A stretch of 22,691 nt of DNA from a virus. Lineage: Duplodnaviria; Heunggongvirae; Uroviricota; Caudoviricetes. The stretch lies in IMG/VR virus record IMGVR_UViG_643886067_000002, one strand, 5' to 3'. The position numbers and the translations under genes are program-made. The notes below the pieces were generated by a model, which searched no databases, was not told where the DNA came from, and saw only the letters and a list, made by a program, of their open reading frames with translations. Numbering within the stretch: position 1 is the stretch's first letter; every line of letters starts with the position of its first letter. Shown here piece by piece: positions 6,545 through 15,825 of this stretch.

Positions 6545-8604
6545 TCCACAACCTCCCCAAGCTGCGCATCTGTTAGCTCTTTATGCCAGAGACGAAAATT
6601 CCTCACATGCCCAAATAAATGGCGTAATCCTGCTGTAGTTTGTCCACCAATGCGAATGGTTGCTGTACTCCGGATATATTCCCATTTGGTTTTAGTTTCG
6701 CTGCTTAACTTACCGTTACTGACTACACATGTGGACCGTTCGGACTTTACCCGCATACCAATAAGCATTTTTTCCAGCCCGGCATTTTCATTTATTCGTC
6801 GGTCTGAACCACCTATATCACAATACGGAAAACCGTCGTACCCACCTGATGAACCAAACCCCATTACGATCCCCGCTCCGGTTTGATGACCGCCGGTATC
6901 AAAAACACGCGGCGCTACATTTGGCGTTTTATACCAGTTCTTATGTACCTCACAAAGAACCGTAAAAGGAAGATTATAAAGATTATTCTTAATCGGAACT
7001 GTAACCATATCGCTTGCCCGCGTTACCGGTGCCGTCCCCGTAACAATAAAAGATGATGCGCCTGTACCAGCCTCAATCTGTGGAGTGGTTACATCGAGAT
7101 AATCCCCTGATGCAACCATCTGCCCTGTATCCGGAGAATACTGGACAAAACCACCAACCGTATTTTCTGTTGTATCTGCTTTTAATGTAGCCTCAAAAAA
7201 TATCCAGCCAGTTGCATCATCCTTAACAGACCTTGCTGTAACACGGCTTGTCTGACCTGTCTTGCTAATTATGCGGGTGGTAAGGTTCAGGTTTGCTGCT
7301 CCTATTGATGTCCTTACCTCCCCATCATAATGTTCAAATAAAATACGAACGGCGATATTATCAACTTCACTTTTTACCCGACAGGATATAGTTACATGCT
7401 TTTCGTCCCCTGAAGTATCAACCCCTCCGGTACTCGAATACAGTCCGATAATGGTATGCGCTTTACTTGTACCAACAATCGAATCCTGTACGACAAACCG
7501 GCCATAATTAAACCCGAAACTATCTGTGCCTGTTTCTGTAACGTCCAGTGAAGTTGACTTATTCCACTTCGAAGGGTCTGTACTGTTCGGGAAGAAGTTC
7601 GTTCTTTGCCCCTCAATAAGCAGGCCATCACACTCAAATCGTGGCTCATTAATTTCCGCCGTTTTCAGTTCGCCAGATTTGTTGATATATGTTGCCGTTG
7701 ATGCGCGACTGAAATTAACCTGTTTATCACTGGCAACCTGAACCACATTATCACCAATCTTCACTTTTTTATAACCCGGAGAATAGCCCGTAATCATATC
7801 CAGCGAATCATTAAAGGGTATCCACACATCCGGCAGCGGCTGTAAAACATATCTGTACGGCTCTGCTGTCTGGTTTGCGTATTCTCTGGCAGCATCTTCA
7901 CTTGCTTTTGCTGCCGTCTGGCTTGCTGCCGATGCTTTCGCCGAGTTCGCCGCCGCTGTTTCGCTCACCTTTGCGTTGGCTTCACTGTCTTTGGCATTCG
8001 TCTCACTGGTTTTCGCTGCCGTCTGGCTGGATTTTGCGTTTTTTTCGCTGGCCTTTGTGGCTGTCTCGCTATTTTTCGCGCTGGTTTCTGATTTTTTGGC
8101 TGCTGTCGCGGAGTTTGCCGATGCAGTCTGCGAGGCCGCTGCCGCCTGTGCGCTGTTAGCTGCATTCGTTTCTGAGGTTTTCGCCGCGTTCTTCGATGAT
8201 GCCGCTGCAGTTTCGGATTTCTTTGCTGCCGCTGCGCTCTGTGATGATGCTCCGGCATGACGTGCCACTTCATTCACCATCAGCTCAAAACGGCGCAGTG
8301 CCTCCGGCATGACATCATCTTCCGTCATGGCGCCGAGAAAATCATTCAGCGTACCTGGTCTGGAACCTTCATAGACGGTAATGGTCCCGGCATGTGAAGG
8401 CGGAAAATCTTCAACCAGCAGGGTGACGCTGTACTGGCCATACTCAACATCCATGCTGTAACGCCCGGCTTCATCCGGATTTTCAGAGGCCACCGTGTTC
8501 ACCACCACCGTGCTGCTGGTCCGTCTGGCCTTCAGCACAATGGTGCAGTTCTGTACTGGTTTTCCTGTGCCATCTTTAAGCACGCCAGAAATTTTTACTG
8601 TCAT
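6541..8604 (-). CDS. stf: Side tail fiber protein Stf (lambda Stf-like N-terminus, divergent C-terminal receptor-binding region)
   Basis: N-terminus MTVKISGVLKDGTGKPVQNCTIVLKARR...SENPDEAGRYSMDVEYGQYSV...FPPSHAGTITVYE is near-identical in pattern to lambda Stf; central Ala/Ser/Thr/Lys-rich repeat region; C-terminus ends ...VRNFRLWHKELTDAQLGEVVE, resembling the terminal motif of LamG/concanavalin-like domains. Confidence 0.9.
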   Translation of the reverse strand: MTVKISGVLKDGTGKPVQNCTIVLKARRTSSTVVVNTVASENPDEAGRYSMDVEYGQYSVTLLVEDFPPSHAGTITVYEGSRPGTLNDFLGAMTEDDVMPEALRRFELMVNEVARHAGASSQSAAAAKKSETAAASSKNAAKTSETNAANSAQAAAASQTASANSATAAKKSETSAKNSETATKASEKNAKSSQTAAKTSETNAKDSEANAKVSETAAANSAKASAASQTAAKASEDAAREYANQTAEPYRYVLQPLPDVWIPFNDSLDMITGYSPGYKKVKIGDNVVQVASDKQVNFSRASTATYINKSGELKTAEINEPRFECDGLLIEGQRTNFFPNSTDPSKWNKSTSLDVTETGTDSFGFNYGRFVVQDSIVGTSKAHTIIGLYSSTGGVDTSGDEKHVTISCRVKSEVDNIAVRILFEHYDGEVRTSIGAANLNLTTRIISKTGQTSRVTARSVKDDATGWIFFEATLKADTTENTVGGFVQYSPDTGQMVASGDYLDVTTPQIEAGTGASSFIVTGTAPVTRASDMVTVPIKNNLYNLPFTVLCEVHKNWYKTPNVAPRVFDTGGHQTGAGIVMGFGSSGGYDGFPYCDIGGSDRRINENAGLEKMLIGMRVKSERSTCVVSNGKLSSETKTKWEYIRSTATIRIGGQTTAGLRHLFGHVRNFRLWHKELTDAQLGEVVE
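7880..8270. repeat. Imperfect tandem repeats inside stf encoding A/S/T/K-rich units (SETxAKxS...)
   Basis: Recurring DNA motifs such as gctgccgtctggct and ttttcgctg; protein shows repeated AAKKSET, AAKTSETNA, AKNSETA units. Confidence 0.6.
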
Positions 8605-8755: not shown

Positions 8756-9355
8756 TCAGAAACGGTATCCGATACCAACAATAAATGCATCCGTTCGCCA
8801 GTCGCCACTGCCGGAGCCTTCATAAGCAATATCAATGGCCACGGATTCGGTCGGGTTAAACTGCACGCCAGCTCCCCACGCCAGAGAGGTATTGCTGTGG
8901 CGACCGTCATCACTTCCGGTCAGCACGTCGTGCGTTTTCCCCTTGTTGTCAGTTACGCGGAGATAATCCCCGGAGAAAGTCGACACACGGCTGTAAGCCA
9001 CACCTGCCATCGCATAAGCACTGAACCATTCATTCACGCGCACAGACGGCCCCGCCATTACGCTGAACCAGCGGTTACGCACGGAATCTTCATGCCAGCG
9101 GGTATCGCTGTAATGCGTTTTTTGCTCATCTTTGGCATTGGCATAACTGAATGACGTCACCAGCCCCAGCGTGTCCGTAAACTCATAACGGTATTTCACG
9201 TTAATCCCGTTCAGATCATCGCTGCCAGGCATATCAGTATGGGTCTGAAGATACCCGGCGCTTAGTGTGGACTGATGCTCTGCTGCGCTCGCTGGCGTAC
9301 CAGCGGCAACCAGCCAGACTACTGCGGACAGAATAACAGCACATAATTTACGCAT
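8756..9355 (-). CDS. lom: Lom outer membrane protein (Ail/Lom/PagC family beta-barrel), prophage moron
   Basis: Signal peptide; matches lambda Lom by eye (INVKYRYEFTD, SVMAGP, AYAMAGVAYSR, and the C-terminal DIAYEGSGSGDWRTD.FIVGIGYRF); position between J and stf as in lambda. Confidence 0.9.
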   Translation of the reverse strand: MRKLCAVILSAVVWLVAAGTPASAAEHQSTLSAGYLQTHTDMPGSDDLNGINVKYRYEFTDTLGLVTSFSYANAKDEQKTHYSDTRWHEDSVRNRWFSVMAGPSVRVNEWFSAYAMAGVAYSRVSTFSGDYLRVTDNKGKTHDVLTGSDDGRHSNTSLAWGAGVQFNPTESVAIDIAYEGSGSGDWRTDAFIVGIGYRF

Positions 9356-9422: not shown

Positions 9423-12400
9423 TCAGCTAATCGTGATGCCTGCAGTGGCTTTCTTCATCACAACAACCAGCAAATCGCTGATACTTGCTGTGGGATACCA
9501 GCCATTTACCCACCATGCTGATACAGAAAACTCCAGCGTCATGTGACCGCGACCAGCAGGCATATCAATAACACCACTGTAAACCAGCGTATTATCCAGC
9601 GCGGTACGGTTATAAATTTCAGCACCGTTTTTCTTCACTATCAGGCGGCATGACGAATAAGTATCGCTGTTCTCCCGCTCATGTCTGGCACCGCTGAAAG
9701 CCACCGCCGGAATAACAATCTGCCGGTTAAACGGCTGATCGTCATAAACCCTGACGGTAATGGTTCCTGATGGCCAACGCTTCGGTGCACGGGAGTCACG
9801 AGGGAAAGCCTTACCCACTGTTTTAACGAGATCGCCTTCAATCTGGTTTGCAGACAGTTTCCCTCTGATGACACAGTTCTCGTTAATGGTGACATTATTG
9901 AGCGTGCCGGTATTCGCCGTGATGGCTCCACTGATATCCGCATTGCGGGCTGTCAGCCTGCCATCCGGCGTCAGGGAAAACGTCGGAGGATTGCCGGATG
10001 ACGTGATGCTCACCGCAAACAGTCGCTTCAGGAACACGTCGTTCATGAACAGCTGATTCCCCTGCGCCACAAACAGCGGCGTGGTGTTGCCGTTCTCCGG
10101 GGTAATCATCGCAATGCGATCGGCCTGCAGCAGAATGTTACTCAGGGTCTGACCATCAACATCCTCAATCCCCGCGCCAATCCCGGCCACATAGGGAATA
10201 CCGTTTTTTGTTTTCTGCACCTTCAGCATATACATGGCATTCAGCTCATTGCGCGTGTCTGACTGAACCCGCTGGATTTGCTGTATGGTCACGGCCTGGT
10301 CACCCAGCTTTTTATCCGTGGTCGAGGTAATTTCACTCCCTTTTTTATCCACGTACTGGCGGACCTGTGCTATCTGCCGGGCGTTTTCTGACTGCCCCTG
10401 GCTGACAGTCTGTGAGATTTCACTGCTCACCCGGTCCACTTTCTGGCTCATCTGCGCGATGGCCAGTGTCTGGTCCTCATTCTTTTTCGCAACCAGCTGC
10501 GTGAGGCTGTTTTCCGCCTCCCCGATTTTCCGGGTCACTTCTGCGATATCCGTGTCCATCCGCTGACGGATGTCTTCTTCCAGTTGCGTGACCTCCGTAC
10601 GCAGCGCTGAAGCATCAATGCGCTCTTTCAGTGCCTGACCCAGAAGCGTCTCATCTATCAGCCCCCGGAAAATTTCCAGATACCCTTCACCATCATTGCT
10701 GGGCTGCCCGCTGGCTTCCACAAAAGCAGATTTTCCCACCAGGTTGACGCTTCGCACGTAAAACCAGAAATCCGTCCCCGGCTTAATCCGGCTCCCCTGG
10801 ACAGTCCACTGACTGCCGGACCCCAGATAACGGGCAGATTTTTCCACCTGTGCCGTGTTCGTGATGCGTTTTTCTGAGAACCAGAATTCAAACTGTATCG
10901 TCGGATCATACACCGCAAGACGCGGGACCGCCGTTATCTGAAAATACCCCGGCGTCAGCTCAATGGTGGCGGGTTTTGCAGGTGCGTTAATCCGGAAGGT
11001 GGTGGTGGCAGGTTCACCCTGCTGGCCATAACTGTTTATCGCCCGCACCGTCAGGGTGTATTCCCCCAGTGGCAGGCCACTGAAACGGTGCTCCGTGTCT
11101 GCGGTGATGGCGGTGGTCACCAGTCTGGCATCCGTTCCCTTACCACTGGTCAGGCGCAGACTGAAGCGCACGCCCTTCACCACCCGCGGCGTGTCCCATT
11201 TAGCCTGCGCCAGATACTGGCCGTCAGCTGCGCTCACCTCCACCGTCAGGTGCTGTACTGCCGGTGGGATGACGCTGTTCAGGGAGCCTGACTGCGGCTC
11301 AAAGCGGGCACCGTTATCCACGATGGCTTCTTTTTCCGGTACGTGCTGCACCGCCGTGATGGCAAAGGTGCCGTCCGTGTTTTCCCGGACGGAGACACAG
11401 CGGAACAGGCGACGGCGCAGTGACGGCAGGGAGAGTCCCCACACACCGTATGTCTCCACACCATCCGGCAGGGTGCTGACCTGTATCCGGTCCGGCGCGG
11501 GGTGTGCGGTGATGGCCACGCTCGCCGGCTTACCGCTGCCGTTAATCAGATTAACAGTGGCCGTGCCGGTCTCCGGCAGTGTCACCTCCCGGTCCAGCGT
11601 CAGGGTACGGCTGGCGGCATCGATGGACAGGACACGTCCGCCGGTCATGGTCCCGGCATAGTCGTTATCACAGATTTCAATGATGTCACCGGGTGTGTGC
11701 CGCAGCCCCTGAGACCCGAGCGTGAAATCCACCGTCTGCGTTTCCAGCAGTTCGGTCTTTATCACCCACAGCCCGGCACGGTGCGCCTGCCCCCGGCTGG
11801 TACAGCCGAACGCGTCCATCTTCAGCAGGTTGCGTCCGTAGCGCAGTATGGCTTCCGGGTCTTCCACCAGTTCCGTGGAGGTCTGCCAGCCGTTCTGCGG
11901 GTCGGTGTAATTCACCTCCACCGCCGTGTGCCGGTCCTTCAGGGCACTGAAGCTGTAGCGGAACCCCACGCCGTTATCATCCACCACCACATCGCTGTTG
12001 GTGTACGGCCACACCACATCCGACGGGCGGTCCTGAACGAACGTCAGCGTCTGACCGTTCCATACCGGCATACAGCGCATCGCAGAGCAGAAATCACTGA
12101 GAACGTCCCACGCCTTACGCTGTTGTGCCAGGTACGCATTAAAGGTCATCCGCGGCTCGGTCCCCCCGAAACCATCCGGGACCGTCTGGTCGCAGTACTG
12201 CCCGATGGCATACAGCGCCCACTTGTCCACATCCGCCGCCCCCAGACGTTTTCCCATGCCGTAGCGCGGGTGAGTCAGCATGTCCCACAGGCACCAGGCC
12301 GGGTTGTTGCTGTATGCCGGTTTCAGACTGCCGTCCCAGATACCACTGTACGTGCGTTTTTCCGGGTCATAGTTTGACGGCACCTGGATGATGCGACCGC

Positions 12401-13115
12401 GGATATGGTAGTTCACCGTCATCTGCTGGCCGCCGAACTGCTCCGCATCCACCTGCAGCCCCACAATGGCCGTGTTCGGGTAGCACTGTTTCACATCGAT
12501 GATTTCGGTGTATGACGACCACAGCGTCTTATTCTGCAGCTGGTCCGTGGTGCTGTCCGCCGTCTCCCTGACCATCCGGATGTTAAAGGGCCGGGGAGGC
12601 AGATTATCCAGAATCACCGAGGCCAGGAACTGTGAGGTGGTCTTGCCGTTAATGGTGACGTCCTTTTCCGTCACCCAGCGGCCATTACGCTGTAACTGAA
12701 TCAGAATCCGGACAGAGGAAGGATTACGGTCGCCCTTTGACGTGGTCTGCACCAGTGACTGCACCCCGAAGGTAACCCGCAGGCGGTCAATGTTCGCGGA
12801 CGTAATGGTGCGCGTCACCGGTTTTGCCTTCGTCACTTCCACGCCCAGTCCGGTTTCAGCTCCGGAGGACTCAAAGCCTTCCGGTGGTGTCTGCTCCTGC
12901 TCCCCGGCACGCCAGACCGCGGTCACACCGTGTATCACGGGATTACCGTCCGTGTCCGTCAGCGGGGTTTTGTTCACCAGGATACTCTGCAGTCCCTTCA
13001 CCGGACCTTCTATCGGTCCCTCACCAATCGCATCAATCACACTCATCATCTGCGTGGATTTGAGATTATCCTTCGCCTCACGAGGCGTGTGTGCCTTACC
13101 GCCACCTTTTCCCAT
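9423..13115 (-). CDS. J: Tail tip / host specificity protein J (central tail fiber), 1230 aa
   Basis: N-terminus [39 protein letters not shown] and long stretches ([83 protein letters not shown]) co-linear with lambda J; SD GGGGAAGG before the ATG. About 100 aa longer than lambda J, with an extended coiled-coil and a divergent C-terminal ~150 aa. Confidence 0.95.
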
Positions 13116-13219
13116 ACAGCCTTCCCCTGAATAAATTAACCGCCACTTGCCATTCCGTACAGAAGTCGGATATCCTTCGCCCGAAAAGCATGAAACACAT
13201 TTCTGCCATGCTAAAGAGA

Positions 13220-13251
13220 AACCCCGGTATCAGCAGATACCGGGGTTTTCT
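13220..13251. other. Perfect 12-bp inverted repeat hairpin (aaccccggtatc / gataccggggtt, 4-nt loop) flanked by T/A-rich runs in the I-J intergenic insert
   Basis: Read directly from sequence; followed by ttttcttt on the plus strand and tttctcttt on the minus strand, so it could terminate in either direction. Confidence 0.5.
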
Positions 13252-13320
13252 TTCATGCCCACCGATAATCCTGTTGGTTAAAACCGGTAATGGCATAAAA
13301 ATTCTGAATATCTTCACATT

Positions 13321-13348
13321 TTCACAAAATCCCTGTGGCACTTATAAT
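13321..13348 (+). promoter_or_regulatory. Sigma70-like promoter candidate (TTCACA - 16 nt - TATAAT) facing antisense to the tail operon
   Basis: -35-like ttcaca at 13321-13326 (a second ttcaca lies 6 nt upstream), perfect -10 tataat at 13343-13348; lies in noncoding DNA between I and J. Confidence 0.45.
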
Positions 13349-13354
13349 TTCTCT

Positions 13355-13447
13355 GCGTTAATTTTTTTTGTCGTGACATAAGAATAATTATCTATAGTTG
13401 ATCTTCGTAACGCTCCCGCAGCTCCGCAACTCTGCGGGATTTTTTTA
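13355..13447 (+). ncRNA. Candidate small non-coding RNA (~90 nt) defined by the promoter and terminator; no ORF
   Basis: Predicted start ~7 nt after the -10; ends at a GC-rich hairpin plus T8 terminator; no start codon with an SD or ORF longer than a few codons inside. Prediction only. Confidence 0.3.
13414..13447 (+). terminator. Intrinsic terminator (stem tcccgcag/ctgcggga plus T8)
   Basis: Stem 13414-13421 / 13432-13439, T-run 13440-13447 on the plus strand. Not U-rich on the minus strand, so it is unidirectional. Confidence 0.6.
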
Positions 13448-13453
13448 TTCTTT

Positions 13454-14134
13454 TTACCCCTGCCGCCCGATAACCACGACCTTTCCGCCCCCGCCTTCAT
13501 CACGGGTGCTGATGTCCTGGGATATACGGCGGGAGCCAACCAGCATTTCCCCGTAAGGCACCGGCATCGGGTTCCCCTGGGCAATCATGTTATCCAGCGA
13601 GGAAAAGTACGTGTTCTGTCTGCCGTTATCCGTTACGCGGTAATCCGGTGTTTTTGCCTTCGGGGCCAGCATCTGTGCCACACCGCCCAGTATCATGCTG
13701 GCCCCCAGTGAAAACAGCATCGTGGTGGCAGAAAAACCACCGGCTGCCAGGGCTGAACCCCATAACGCCATCGAGGCACCGGCCGTGAAGAAAGAGCCCA
13801 CGATGGCTGCCGCCCCCAGCACAATCTGCAGTCCGCCCTTTCCGGCTCCGGCCAGTCGCGGCACAATGTGGATGACCGTTCCCTCACCCAGCTGTTCGTG
13901 AAGACGGGCGTACACCGCCTCCGGTGCCGTGTCATCACCGGCAATACGTATCTGGTACCAGCCTTCGTTCATCTGACGGCGAAAGCCCGGCACCTGTAAC
14001 GACAGGGCACGGATGGCTTCCGCTGCCGTGTTCACATACAGGCTGAGGCGGCGGCCAAATCGTTGCAAATCCCCGTGAAGGCAGATGCGTGCCAGTGGCG
14101 GTGACGCCAGACAGAATGCGTTCGTCGTTGCCAT
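13454..14134 (-). CDS. I: Tail assembly protein I
   Basis: MATTNAFCLASPPLARICLHGDLQRFGRR..., glycine-rich hydrophobic middle, ...QNTYFSSLDNMIAQGNPMPVPYGEMLVGSRRISQ; co-linear with lambda gpI. Confidence 0.9.
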   Translation of the reverse strand: MATTNAFCLASPPLARICLHGDLQRFGRRLSLYVNTAAEAIRALSLQVPGFRRQMNEGWYQIRIAGDDTAPEAVYARLHEQLGEGTVIHIVPRLAGAGKGGLQIVLGAAAIVGSFFTAGASMALWGSALAAGGFSATTMLFSLGASMILGGVAQMLAPKAKTPDYRVTDNGRQNTYFSSLDNMIAQGNPMPVPYGEMLVGSRRISQDISTRDEGGGGKVVVIGRQG

Positions 14135-14775
14135 TTTTCGGAATACCTCTCCCGTTTACTCAGTTGTTCAGGCAGATGGTGAAGCAGCTCACCGTTGCCG
14201 CAGTAAATGGCGGCATGGTTCGGTACCGAAGCACCAAAGCAGCACAGCAGAATATCGCCCGCCTGTGCAGAGGACAGGGGCACCCGGTAAAAGCCGGTGA
14301 CCGCCATATTGTCCAGGTAAAGGTTCTGACCGTTGCGCCACCAGTCATCCTCGCGATGAAAATCCGGCATTTCAGTCCCCGCCAGATGGTATGCATCCCG
14401 GAACAGGGTGTAACAGTCCGTCACCCCGTGCTCAAAGCGCCGTCCCGTCAGGTGCGGCACGCAGCGGAATTTGTGAATGTCACCCCGGCAGACCAGCCAC
14501 CAGGGCAGTGCGCTCTTTATCTGCAGCCGCCGGTCCGCCTCGCTCAGCCAGGGCAGACCACCGGGATGACTGTGGACCAGCGCCACAATCTCCCCCTGCA
14601 TCTCTGCCCGCAGCCAGTCTTCCGGTGCGATACGAAAATACGCCTCCGGCTCTGCGGAAATATTCACACAAGGGATATACCGCTCCCCCTCCGGCGTGCT
14701 TATCACGAAGCCGCACGACTCCGCAGGCGCACACCGCCGGGCATGCGCCAGAATCGCTGATTCAGTCTGTGTCAT
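14032..14775 (-). CDS. K: Tail assembly protein K (NlpC/P60-like fold)
   Basis: Start reassigned to the internal Met (MTQTESAILAHARRCAPAESCGF...) by comparison with lambda gpK; motifs HSHPGG and RRFEHGVTDCYTLFRDAYH; 3' end overlaps I by about 100 nt in another frame, as in lambda. Confidence 0.9.
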   Translation of the reverse strand: MTQTESAILAHARRCAPAESCGFVISTPEGERYIPCVNISAEPEAYFRIAPEDWLRAEMQGEIVALVHSHPGGLPWLSEADRRLQIKSALPWWLVCRGDIHKFRCVPHLTGRRFEHGVTDCYTLFRDAYHLAGTEMPDFHREDDWWRNGQNLYLDNMAVTGFYRVPLSSAQAGDILLCCFGASVPNHAAIYCGNGELLHHLPEQLSKRERYSEKWQRRTHSVWRHRHWHASAFTGICNDLAAASACM

Positions 14776-14785
14776 AAACCGGGAT

Positions 14786-15484
14786 TTACTGCGAAAGTTT
14801 ATTAATGGAAAGGAAACCGCCAAAATTGCCGACATTCCTGCGCAGTTCACACCCGCGCATGCACTTGCTGCATCTGTCCTTACGGATATCCGTGGTGGGT
14901 TTATCGAACTCATCCGCCACTGCCCCGCCCGTGTAACCACACTCATCAGAGCGGTAGGTCCACATACAGGTGTTCGCCAGCATGATACGACCGGGAAACA
15001 GCGCCCCGTCCGTCTCGGTCGGTGTGGCCAGCACAAACGAGGCCGTCATGGCTGTCAGCTGCGACATCTGCTCCACCACCCAGCGGTCACTCAGCTCCTG
15101 CTCCGGGTCCGCCTCCGGATTGCCCGCAACGAAATTCACCGCATCCAGAAAACGGGCATACACCCGGCGGCGGACCACCGTGGCCCCCACCAGACTCTGC
15201 AGGTCTTCCGCCATCCCGGTGACCAGACCGAACAGATTGGACACCGTCAGCGACGGTCTGGCACTGCTGCCCCGGCCGCTCATCTCAAAACCGCTGCCGT
15301 CAATCGGGTATGCCTCATACTTACGCCCCTGCCAGGTGACCGGCTCCCCTTTTTCATTCAGCTCATTACAGAAAAAATACCGCTCACCGCCCTGTACCGT
15401 CAGGTCGATTTCCCAGAGTACCACCCGCGGTGACTGCTCTGATTTAACCGACTCGTTCAGACTTTCTTCGTGAATATCCTGCAT
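14786..15484 (-). CDS. L: Minor tail protein L
   Basis: MQDIHEESLNE...VVLWEIDLT..GGERYFFCNE.NEKGEPVTWQGR...C-terminal CSKCMRGC...NVGNFGGFLSINKLSQ, nearly identical in pattern to lambda gpL. Confidence 0.95.
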   Translation of the reverse strand: MQDIHEESLNESVKSEQSPRVVLWEIDLTVQGGERYFFCNELNEKGEPVTWQGRKYEAYPIDGSGFEMSGRGSSARPSLTVSNLFGLVTGMAEDLQSLVGATVVRRRVYARFLDAVNFVAGNPEADPEQELSDRWVVEQMSQLTAMTASFVLATPTETDGALFPGRIMLANTCMWTYRSDECGYTGGAVADEFDKPTTDIRKDRCSKCMRGCELRRNVGNFGGFLSINKLSQ

Positions 15485-15825
15485 CAGTTCACCACCTGCT
15501 CAATCGTACAACTGAAATCACTGTACCTGGCGTTATCTGTGACGCTCCACTCCCGGCATACCACCCTCACCGTCCGGTTATGTTTCGGCGGTCGCCACAA
15601 AAAGGCACGGTAACCACCATGCCAGGATAAAAATTCATCCAGCCAGCGCCGGGTTGGTTCATCCGTCACCCGGAACACCGCCTGAAACGTCTTCAGTCTG
15701 GCATTAAGTCCCGTCGGTCGGCGCTGTTCATAACCGTCACCAAACCGAACCCTCACCACCGACGGTTTCTCACTCACCTGCATCCCTTCACGCGGGACCA
15801 GATGCAGCGTTTTTATCTCAGCCAC
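15484..15825 (-). CDS. M: Minor tail protein M
   Basis: VRFGDGYEQR...GLNARLKT..., C-terminal EQVVN as in lambda gpM; overlaps the L start by 1 nt. Confidence 0.9.
   Translation of the reverse strand: MAEIKTLHLVPREGMQVSEKPSVVRVRFGDGYEQRRPTGLNARLKTFQAVFRVTDEPTRRWLDEFLSWHGGYRAFLWRPPKHNRTVRVVCREWSVTDNARYSDFSCTIEQVVN

Follow-up and report, generated by a model that had tools for sequence, protein, structure and literature searches.

PasB is a small RNA (sRNA) of enteropathogenic Escherichia coli (EPEC) E2348/69 that is encoded in prophage PP6 (NC_011601.1, 1466343..1466261, minus strand, 83 nt; PMC8550237 Table S6) and was seen by Northern blot using the probe AATCCCGCAGTGATCGCGGAGCT (Pearl Mizrahi et al. 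2021, PMC8550237). The same study reports log2 fold changes of -6.8 and -2.4 for PasB in a delta-hfq strain and a higher abundance in the non-activating condition. By RIL-seq, in which interacting RNAs are ligated and sequenced, it has 37 partners, 30 of them coding sequences (CDS) or 5′ untranslated regions and none of them an sRNA; PasB is the second RNA in 99-100% of the chimeric fragments, and core-genome RNAs make up 98-99.5% of its partners, the accessory-genome fraction being 0.5-2% (PMC8550237). Such a profile is that of an sRNA that depends on Hfq and base-pairs with its targets in trans. In enterohaemorrhagic E. coli (EHEC) O157:H7 Sakai, EcOnc22, EcOnc23 and EcOnc24 are homologous peaks of Hfq cross-linking and analysis of cDNA (CRAC); these RNAs run at about 85 nt on Northern blots and are described as 'destabilised' in delta-hfq (Tree et al. 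2014, PMC4104026 Table S2). Here we describe an element in the spacer between tail genes I and J of IMG/VR record IMGVR_UViG_643886067_000002, a stretch of 22,691 nt that we call the window and to which all coordinates refer unless another record is named. From its sequence this element is a divergent, previously uncatalogued allele of the PasB/EcOnc22-24 family. We consider it likely that positions 13295-13446 of the plus strand form a self-contained sRNA gene, a moron lodged in a defective lambdoid prophage, with the stop of gpI on one side of it and the old I-J hairpin on the other.

PasB and the EcOnc RNAs occupy the same place in their prophages. In RefSeq, PasB lies between gpI (which ends at 1466255) and gpJ (which starts at 1466496) and is antisense to both. 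The EcOnc22/23/24 peaks fall within the gpI-gpJ spacers of Sp15, Sp14 and Sp11, respectively, also on the strand antisense to the tail genes. The coordinates in Table S2 of PMC4104026 are about 128-140 nt lower than those of NC_002695.2, judged from the position of AgvB1, so that the CRAC peaks sit on the sRNA body and not beside the J start. This shift affects the mapping of any EcOnc RNA onto the current Sakai record. The I-J spacers of Sp15, Sp14 and Sp11 are identical across all 240 nt. EcOnc22-24 are not named as homologues of PasB in Pearl Mizrahi et al. 2021 or in Zhu et al. 2026. In the window, an earlier note made from the letters of this DNA had read 338 bp of non-coding DNA between I and J (13116-13453), and open reading frames (ORFs), Pfam and the Prokaryotic Genome Annotation Pipeline (PGAP) agree. 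The features of the cassette found in it are as follows.

13295-13320, plus strand: upstream block ATAAAAATTCTGAATATCTTCACATTT, whose columns are invariant in all alleles seen
13321-13348, plus strand: predicted sigma-70 promoter, -35 TTCACA (13321-13326), 16-nt spacer, -10 TATAAT (13343-13348); 11 of 12 consensus positions
13355-13446, plus strand: predicted sRNA, an allele of the PasB/EcOnc22 family; covariance model R1, 64.2 bits
13380-13388, plus strand: (AAN)3 motif AAGAAUAAU in the variable body; candidate Hfq distal-face site
13398-13406, plus strand: UUGAUCUUC, a conserved single-stranded block directly 5′ of the terminator; candidate seed
13414-13446, plus strand: intrinsic terminator with an 8-bp stem UCCCGCAG/CUGCGGGA (13414-13421 with 13432-13439), a 10-nt loop and U7

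Covariance model R1 was built from 12 PasB/EcOnc22-type sequences, none of them of the window type. Its only match in the window is 13355-13446 on the plus strand, with a score of 64.2 bits (E 1.7e-13) over all 94 model positions (1-94). The upstream block, the -10, the leader, the body and the terminator can be aligned between the window, E2348/69 and Sakai. The window copy has the I-J position and antisense orientation of the family, homology over the full length, and the promoter with its upstream block. It also has the family terminator, which we define by a CCCGCAG/CUGCGGG stem, a U-tail of at least 6 and a U(U/C)(G/A)AUCUU block before the stem. On the strength of the shared locus and orientation, the alignment and the R1 match, the window element is assigned to the PasB/EcOnc22-24 family. 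This supports the promoter-cargo-terminator layout of a prophage sRNA proposed in the earlier note, and answers the question left open there of whether a known family is involved.

The predicted RNA of the window is 69.3% identical to PasB, 73.6% to EcOnc22 and 80% to the commonest allele of a third group, which we call class B. With PasB it shares the gpI-gpJ spacer and the antisense orientation, TTCACA-16-TATAAT, the upstream block, UUGAUCUUC, the terminator stem and U7. The body, however, is AU-rich (GUCGUGACAUAAGAAUAAUUAUCUAUAG) whereas that of PasB is CA-rich (GCCCGAGUAACAAAAACAACUCCUUCACA); the terminator loop also differs, and the left half of the spacer is of a 195-nt long type in the window versus a 93-nt type in E2348/69. 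An assignment to PasB in the strict sense, that is, to variants a few nucleotides apart, was ruled out by the identity of only 69% and by a longest exact common word of 15 nt. EcOnc22-24 have the same I-J spacer and strand and a near-identical terminator including the loop (CUCCGC(U)AACU), but a different body (GAUGCCUGAAAAAUAACUCCAUAACG), weaker -35 and -10 elements (TTCCGG and AATAAT) and a short-type left spacer.

Nowhere else in the 22.7-kb window, on either strand, is the sigma-70 consensus matched at 11/12 or better, and 100 shuffles gave a mean of 0.16 such matches; the TTCACA-16-TATAAT picked out in the earlier note is thus both present and unique at that level. Its architecture equals that of the E2348/69 PasB promoter. 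The upstream block is invariant even in Sakai, whose -35 differs. Inside this block, at 13303-13318 on the plus strand, is a CRP-like sequence, TCTGA-N6-TCACA, with one mismatch to the CRP core. PasB is up in the condition in which Spf is down. Spf is repressed by cyclic AMP (cAMP)-CRP, so this pattern fits activation of the sRNA promoter by CRP, and it hints, weakly, that the promoter may be activated by cAMP-CRP. In another record (IMGVR_UViG_2534681940_000025, ~642-664) the sRNA promoter is interrupted directly after its -35 region by an insertion sequence of the IS3 family, whose orfA begins MTKNTRFSPEVRQRAV; the sRNA gene is thereby predicted to be naturally knocked out.

If transcription starts 7 nt past the -10, the RNA would be about 92 nt long, and if its 5′ end matches the mapped 5′ end of PasB (about 13369) it would be about 78 nt. 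The roughly 90 nt after the promoter had been described as lacking a credible ORF, and the ORFs of the spacer have no Pfam match and only noise-level matches in PHROGs. The terminator stem folds at -13.3 kcal/mol (z -3.4) and is identical in 12/12 model sequences. The GC hairpin given in the earlier note at 13414-13447 therefore stands, but the T8 said to follow it is a run of seven (13440-13446) followed by A. In the aligned alleles the block before the stem, UUGAUCUUC in the window, has the consensus U(U/C)(G/A)AUCUU. Zhu, Shabalina & Storz (2026, bioRxiv 10.64898/2026.05.13.724894) put the putative seed of PasB immediately upstream of the terminator. Within the body, an A-A-N periodicity is present in every body class (AAAAACAAC, AAAAAUAAC); the third bases vary, while A91, A92, A94, A95, A97 and A98 are invariant alignment columns. 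The persistence of this pattern across otherwise unrelated bodies suggests that an (ARN)n site for the distal face of Hfq is under selection. Class II Hfq sRNAs reportedly combine ARN repeats, for the distal face, with a U-rich 3′ end for the proximal face. Both features are present and conserved here, as (AAN)3 at 13380-13388 and U7, and Hfq binding is predicted from them.

In order to place the window copy among its relatives, we used a set of alleles taken from an IMG/VR scan with the conserved promoter word and from fetched genomes. The set holds 33 distinct RNA alleles that are built of modules. A conserved leader (GCGUUARU followed by a U run) is joined to a variable body; PasB has a CA-rich one (GCCCGAGUAACAAAAACAAC), class B an AU-rich one (GUCGUGAYAUAAGAAUAA), and the Sakai body reads GAUGCCUGAAAAAUAAC. 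The U(U/C)(G/A)AUCUU block follows in all body classes aligned, and the terminator, whose stem is invariant, has one of about four types of loop. Two types of left half exist among the spacers, a long one of 195 nt with a 12-bp hairpin and a short one of 92-102 nt with a 7-bp hairpin. Every combination of left type, body class and terminator type was found. The window copy is itself a mosaic of a long left half, a class-B body, a PasB-type UUGAUCUUC and a terminator loop of the Sakai/EcOnc22 type. In O157:H7 strain 2149 the left ~230 nt of the spacer are the same as in the window, while the RNA is canonical PasB-2 in place of the window's body, which shows that these are alleles of one locus.

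We also determined how widespread the alleles are in 5426 complete E. coli genomes. Canonical PasB (83 nt) was found by megablast in 956 genomes and the commonest class-B RNA in 800. The exact window-type RNA was present in 34, a set separate from the 956 with PasB, and the whole long-type spacer (338 bp) in 1578. In a published survey, Escherichia genomes were searched with the 83-nt PasB at a word size of 28 and a query cover >75%, and the PasB variants of that survey differ by a few nucleotides (Zhu et al. 2026). The longest exact words in common with PasB are 15 nt for the window allele, 25 nt for class B and 15 nt for EcOnc22, all below that word size. Judging from the method of the survey, the window, class-B and EcOnc22 alleles were probably missed by it. 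Escherichia albertii was the only other species in our species scan besides two tiny contigs in unrelated assemblies, one of Parendozoicomonas haliclonae (NZ_FWPT01000051.1, 460 nt) and one of Streptomyces flavalbus (NZ_JBHTEB010000006.1, 3408 nt). The I-J sRNA loci on these contigs most likely stem from E. coli or phage DNA that contaminated the assemblies.

The spacer and its neighbours in the tail operon are the following.

9423-13115, minus strand: gpJ, tail tip attachment/host specificity protein, 1230 aa; ORF with Pfam FNIII-A_GpJ, Ig_J, Phage-tail_3 and Ig_GpJ_C
13116-13453, no strand assigned: non-coding I-J spacer of the long type, 338 bp, between gpJ and gpI
13213-13254, no strand assigned: strong hairpin with a perfect 12-bp core (13220-13231 with 13236-13247), flanked by an A-run and a T-run
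13454-14134 (longest ORF), minus strand: gpI, tail assembly protein; Pfam Lambda_tail_I, 59 bits, and PGAP annotation

The minus strand of the window carries the tail half of a lambdoid prophage, which adjoins foc (F1C fimbria) genes. In the late operon the spacer is followed downstream by gpJ, which PGAP calls 'phage attachment tail tip protein J' in the identical DNA of E. coli ABU 83972; by PGAP, gpI starts at window position 14035. The spacer is 100% identical in ABU 83972 and about 28 further complete genomes, and among the E. coli matches listed PGAP annotates no feature in it. The sRNA cassette lies between the gpI stop and the 12-bp hairpin, convergent with the silent late operon, and the stop codon of gpI is 7 nt past the U-run of the sRNA. 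The earlier note had assumed that I and J abut or overlap in lambda. In fact, I occupies 14773-15444 and J starts at 15505 in NC_001416, leaving a 60-nt gap (15445-15504) with a hairpin of its own. The gap is 240 nt in E2348/69 and Sakai and 338 bp in the window, so that the window has about 280 bp of extra DNA relative to lambda.

The 12-bp hairpin has the core AACCCCGGTATC-AGCA-GATACCGGGGTT, and its stem is lengthened by pairing between the A- and T-runs. It folds at -26 kcal/mol (z -7.4) on the plus strand and at -28.6 kcal/mol (z -7.1) on the minus strand and is terminator-like on both. The perfect stem described in the earlier note at 13220-13251 is real, with a core that spans 13220-13247; the role implied for it in the sRNA cassette is doubtful, since the sRNA-less I-J gap of lambda has an equivalent. 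In lambda the equivalent is a late-sense hairpin with a T-run, AAACCGCC-UGCG-GGCGGUUUU (-16.5 kcal/mol, z -4.2), and short-type spacers carry AGGCAYC-N6-GRUGCCU with a U-run at the same relative place (compare 5425-5470 of our locus L002). Alleles of the short-type hairpin differ by a compensatory change from C:G to U:A. The 12-bp hairpin stands at the place of these hairpins. It seems to be either the old hairpin between I and J or its replacement, and not to belong to the sRNA cassette. In lambdoid tail operons, a hairpin between the two cistrons, immediately upstream of J, seems to have existed for a long time. Possible roles are to insulate J from transcription that is not antiterminated, to stop antisense transcripts that arise within J, or to serve as an element of mRNA processing or stability. 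In IMGVR_UViG_2671180417_000014 a 47-nt deletion between short direct repeats has removed exactly this hairpin and left the sRNA cassette intact. A second plus-strand sRNA that would end at the 12-bp hairpin was also considered, with a weak promoter TTGCCA-18-TATCCT (13147-13176, 9/12), and is not supported; the position of the hairpin is better explained by its counterparts in lambda and the short-type spacers.

If 13295-13446 is a self-contained sRNA gene, host RNA polymerase in the lysogen would transcribe it from about 13355 and produce an RNA of 78-92 nt that ends in U7. Expression from the repressed prophage would be expected, given that PasB and EcOnc22 are found in non-induced cultures. 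Hfq would grip the U-tail and the terminator stem with its proximal face and (AAN)3 with its distal face, as in class II sRNAs, and the unstructured UUGAUCUUC region and the variable body would pair in trans with mRNAs of the host and of accessory elements. Since its body is unlike that of PasB, the window RNA probably has a different set of targets, and hence a different regulon. Inside the window, the longest exact complementarity of the sRNA to either strand of the remaining sequence is 10-11 nt, which is the chance level, and its duplex energies with 15 start regions in the window are no better than those of shuffled sRNA.

The RNA could instead be a cis-antisense regulator of the tail operon. 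Being fully complementary to the I-J spacer of any late transcript, it would pair there and trigger cleavage or uncouple J from I. The expression of J would thus be damped when late transcription is leaky or when a superinfecting relative brings in the same spacer. The geometry suits this reading: the polycistronic late transcript spans the whole sRNA gene and runs convergent with it, and the position of the gene is conserved in every allele. Against this, the 37 Hfq-dependent partners of EPEC PasB are mostly from the core genome, with an accessory fraction of 0.5-2%, which is a trans-acting profile. The RNA is also retained in defective prophages, in which the portal gene (here) or J and other genes (in O157 strain 2149) are frameshifted, and the body modules swap freely relative to the flanking tail genes. 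We therefore regard regulation in cis as an unlikely main function. Still less probable is that the spacer has no RNA function and is a recombination joint or a transcriptional insulator, with promoter- and terminator-like sequences that hitch-hike with the mosaic boundaries of tail genes. The strong mosaicism of the locus and the failure to find structural covariation speak for such a joint. Yet its homologues occur in two pathotypes as abundant RNAs that Hfq stabilises; alleles with about 30% difference elsewhere have kept the promoter hexamers, (AAN)3, UUGAUCUUC and the terminator; and of all sigma-70 matches in the 22.7 kb this promoter is the best.

We give hardly any credence to the idea that the spacer encodes a small protein, such as the product of a 96-aa ORF on the plus strand or an 81-aa ORF on the minus strand, or a shorter peptide. 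ORFs of 44-96 aa do overlap the spacer, and two phage records carry a CDS there ('hypothetical protein' in ASU11 and 'tail fiber protein' in vB_EcoS-569R3). The spacer ORFs have no Pfam match and only noise-level matches in PHROGs, however, and PGAP annotates nothing there in the E. coli matches listed. Near-identical long-type spacers differ by single-base indels (194 versus 195 nt), the 47-nt deletion variant exists, the short-type spacer is unrelated in sequence, and the sRNA bodies (97-108 nt) differ in length by amounts that are not multiples of 3. The indels, the deletion and the body lengths rule out conserved coding. The earlier note had named coding conservation, or a joint conserved nowhere else, as what would count against an sRNA; the insert is present in 1578 of the 5426 genomes and shows no coding signal.

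Several observations weigh against the sRNA gene that we propose, or limit what can be said of it. The mapped 5′ end of PasB follows the U-run and is some 15 nt downstream of where the -10 would place the start, so that the start site, the processing or the size of the RNA is uncertain. The CRP-like site is centred about 44 nt upstream of the predicted start as against 41.5 nt, and it is not significant by count, as 64 of 100 shuffles hold at least one such match. RNAalifold on the 12 alleles gave 0 compensatory pairs for any sRNA structure; pairing at the 5′ end across these alleles is of the U-run with the A-run only, and the 5′ closing stem in the minimum-free-energy fold of the window RNA is not conserved in the others. 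Accumulation of an Hfq-dependent RNA of about 80-90 nt is known for the E2348/69 and Sakai alleles and is predicted from sequence for the window and class-B alleles. Table S2 of Tree et al. has no EcOnc entries outside the I-J spacers of Sp11, Sp14 and Sp15, and a CRAC or Northern record of a Sakai class-B allele, sought in the same table (PMC4104026), was not found there. PasB is still listed as an RNA of unknown function. Finally, Rfam has no family for the I-J sRNA and thus offers no curated threshold.

The Rfam search suggested in the earlier note accordingly matched no family. With Rfam 15 at the gathering threshold the whole window gave 0 matches, and the spacer at E up to 10 gave only terminator-shaped chance matches, the best of them at 27 bits versus a threshold of 48. 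The matches below threshold include one to GcvB at 11 bits, and none is real. A literature search with sequence strings of the window found nothing. AgvB and AsxR (RF02702, RF02703) resemble the window RNA in that they are prophage morons encoding Hfq-binding sRNAs, in which the 3′ module with the terminator is conserved and the 5′ module, with ARN motifs, is variable. They have no similarity to it in sequence or by model, and they differ in being located downstream of the Q-dependent late promoter, not in the tail operon, and in being much shorter (51-60 nt), and no sign of their anti-sRNA (sponge) mode is seen for PasB, which has 0 sRNA partners in RIL-seq. Kinship with AgvB/AsxR was ruled out by the absence of a model match and by the different prophage position.

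Lambdoid phages carry morons such as lom and bor. The window insert is extra DNA relative to lambda (338 versus 60 nt) and is flanked by its own promoter and terminator. Like lom and bor, it lies between conserved late genes and is presumably expressed from the repressed prophage. It differs from them in that the cargo is RNA, not protein, and in that the cassette is antisense to the late operon. A classical protein moron is present in the same tail region, immediately downstream of J: a gene for an outer-membrane protein of the Ail/Lom family (8756-9355, minus strand).

Taken as a family, the I-J RNAs unite three things that the papers cited here keep apart: PasB of EPEC, EcOnc22-24 of EHEC and an unannotated spacer found in about 29% of complete E. 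coli genomes, whose carriers include asymptomatic bacteriuria (ABU), uropathogenic (UPEC) and sequence type 131 (ST131)-type strains. The equivalence of PasB and EcOnc22-24, the class-B alleles and their prevalence, the modular architecture with (AAN)3 and UUGAUCUUC, and the lambda-like I-J hairpin are useful additions; current concepts are unchanged by them, and a known family is extended. For annotation, we believe that the I-J spacer of lambdoid prophages deserves an sRNA gene label. The natural alleles, with a common chassis and different bodies, are ready seed-swap variants for target finding. ABU 83972 serves in therapy to colonise the bladder, and a prophage sRNA acting on its core genome would be of practical relevance. 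A broader picture can be offered only tentatively, and as a whole it is doubtful. The locus may be a modular, recombining one in which a fixed Hfq-handling chassis (promoter, (AAN)3, UUGAUCUUC and terminator) receives swappable bodies that re-target the RNA to different host regulons. Lineages, here extraintestinal pathogenic (ExPEC) and ABU strains, would then carry functionally distinct alleles, and the family would be ~2-fold as widespread as in the published PasB survey. In this picture the RNA may also act in cis against the late transcripts of related superinfecting phages.

In the region of 1122-4293 (minus strand) and about 4300-8604, the tail-fibre end of the prophage abuts focH, focG and focF and an usher gene (focD/sfaF) that is without its N-terminus. 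The portal gene, which starts at about 22054 at the right edge of the window, is frameshifted. The window is a defective prophage beside a broken fimbrial operon.

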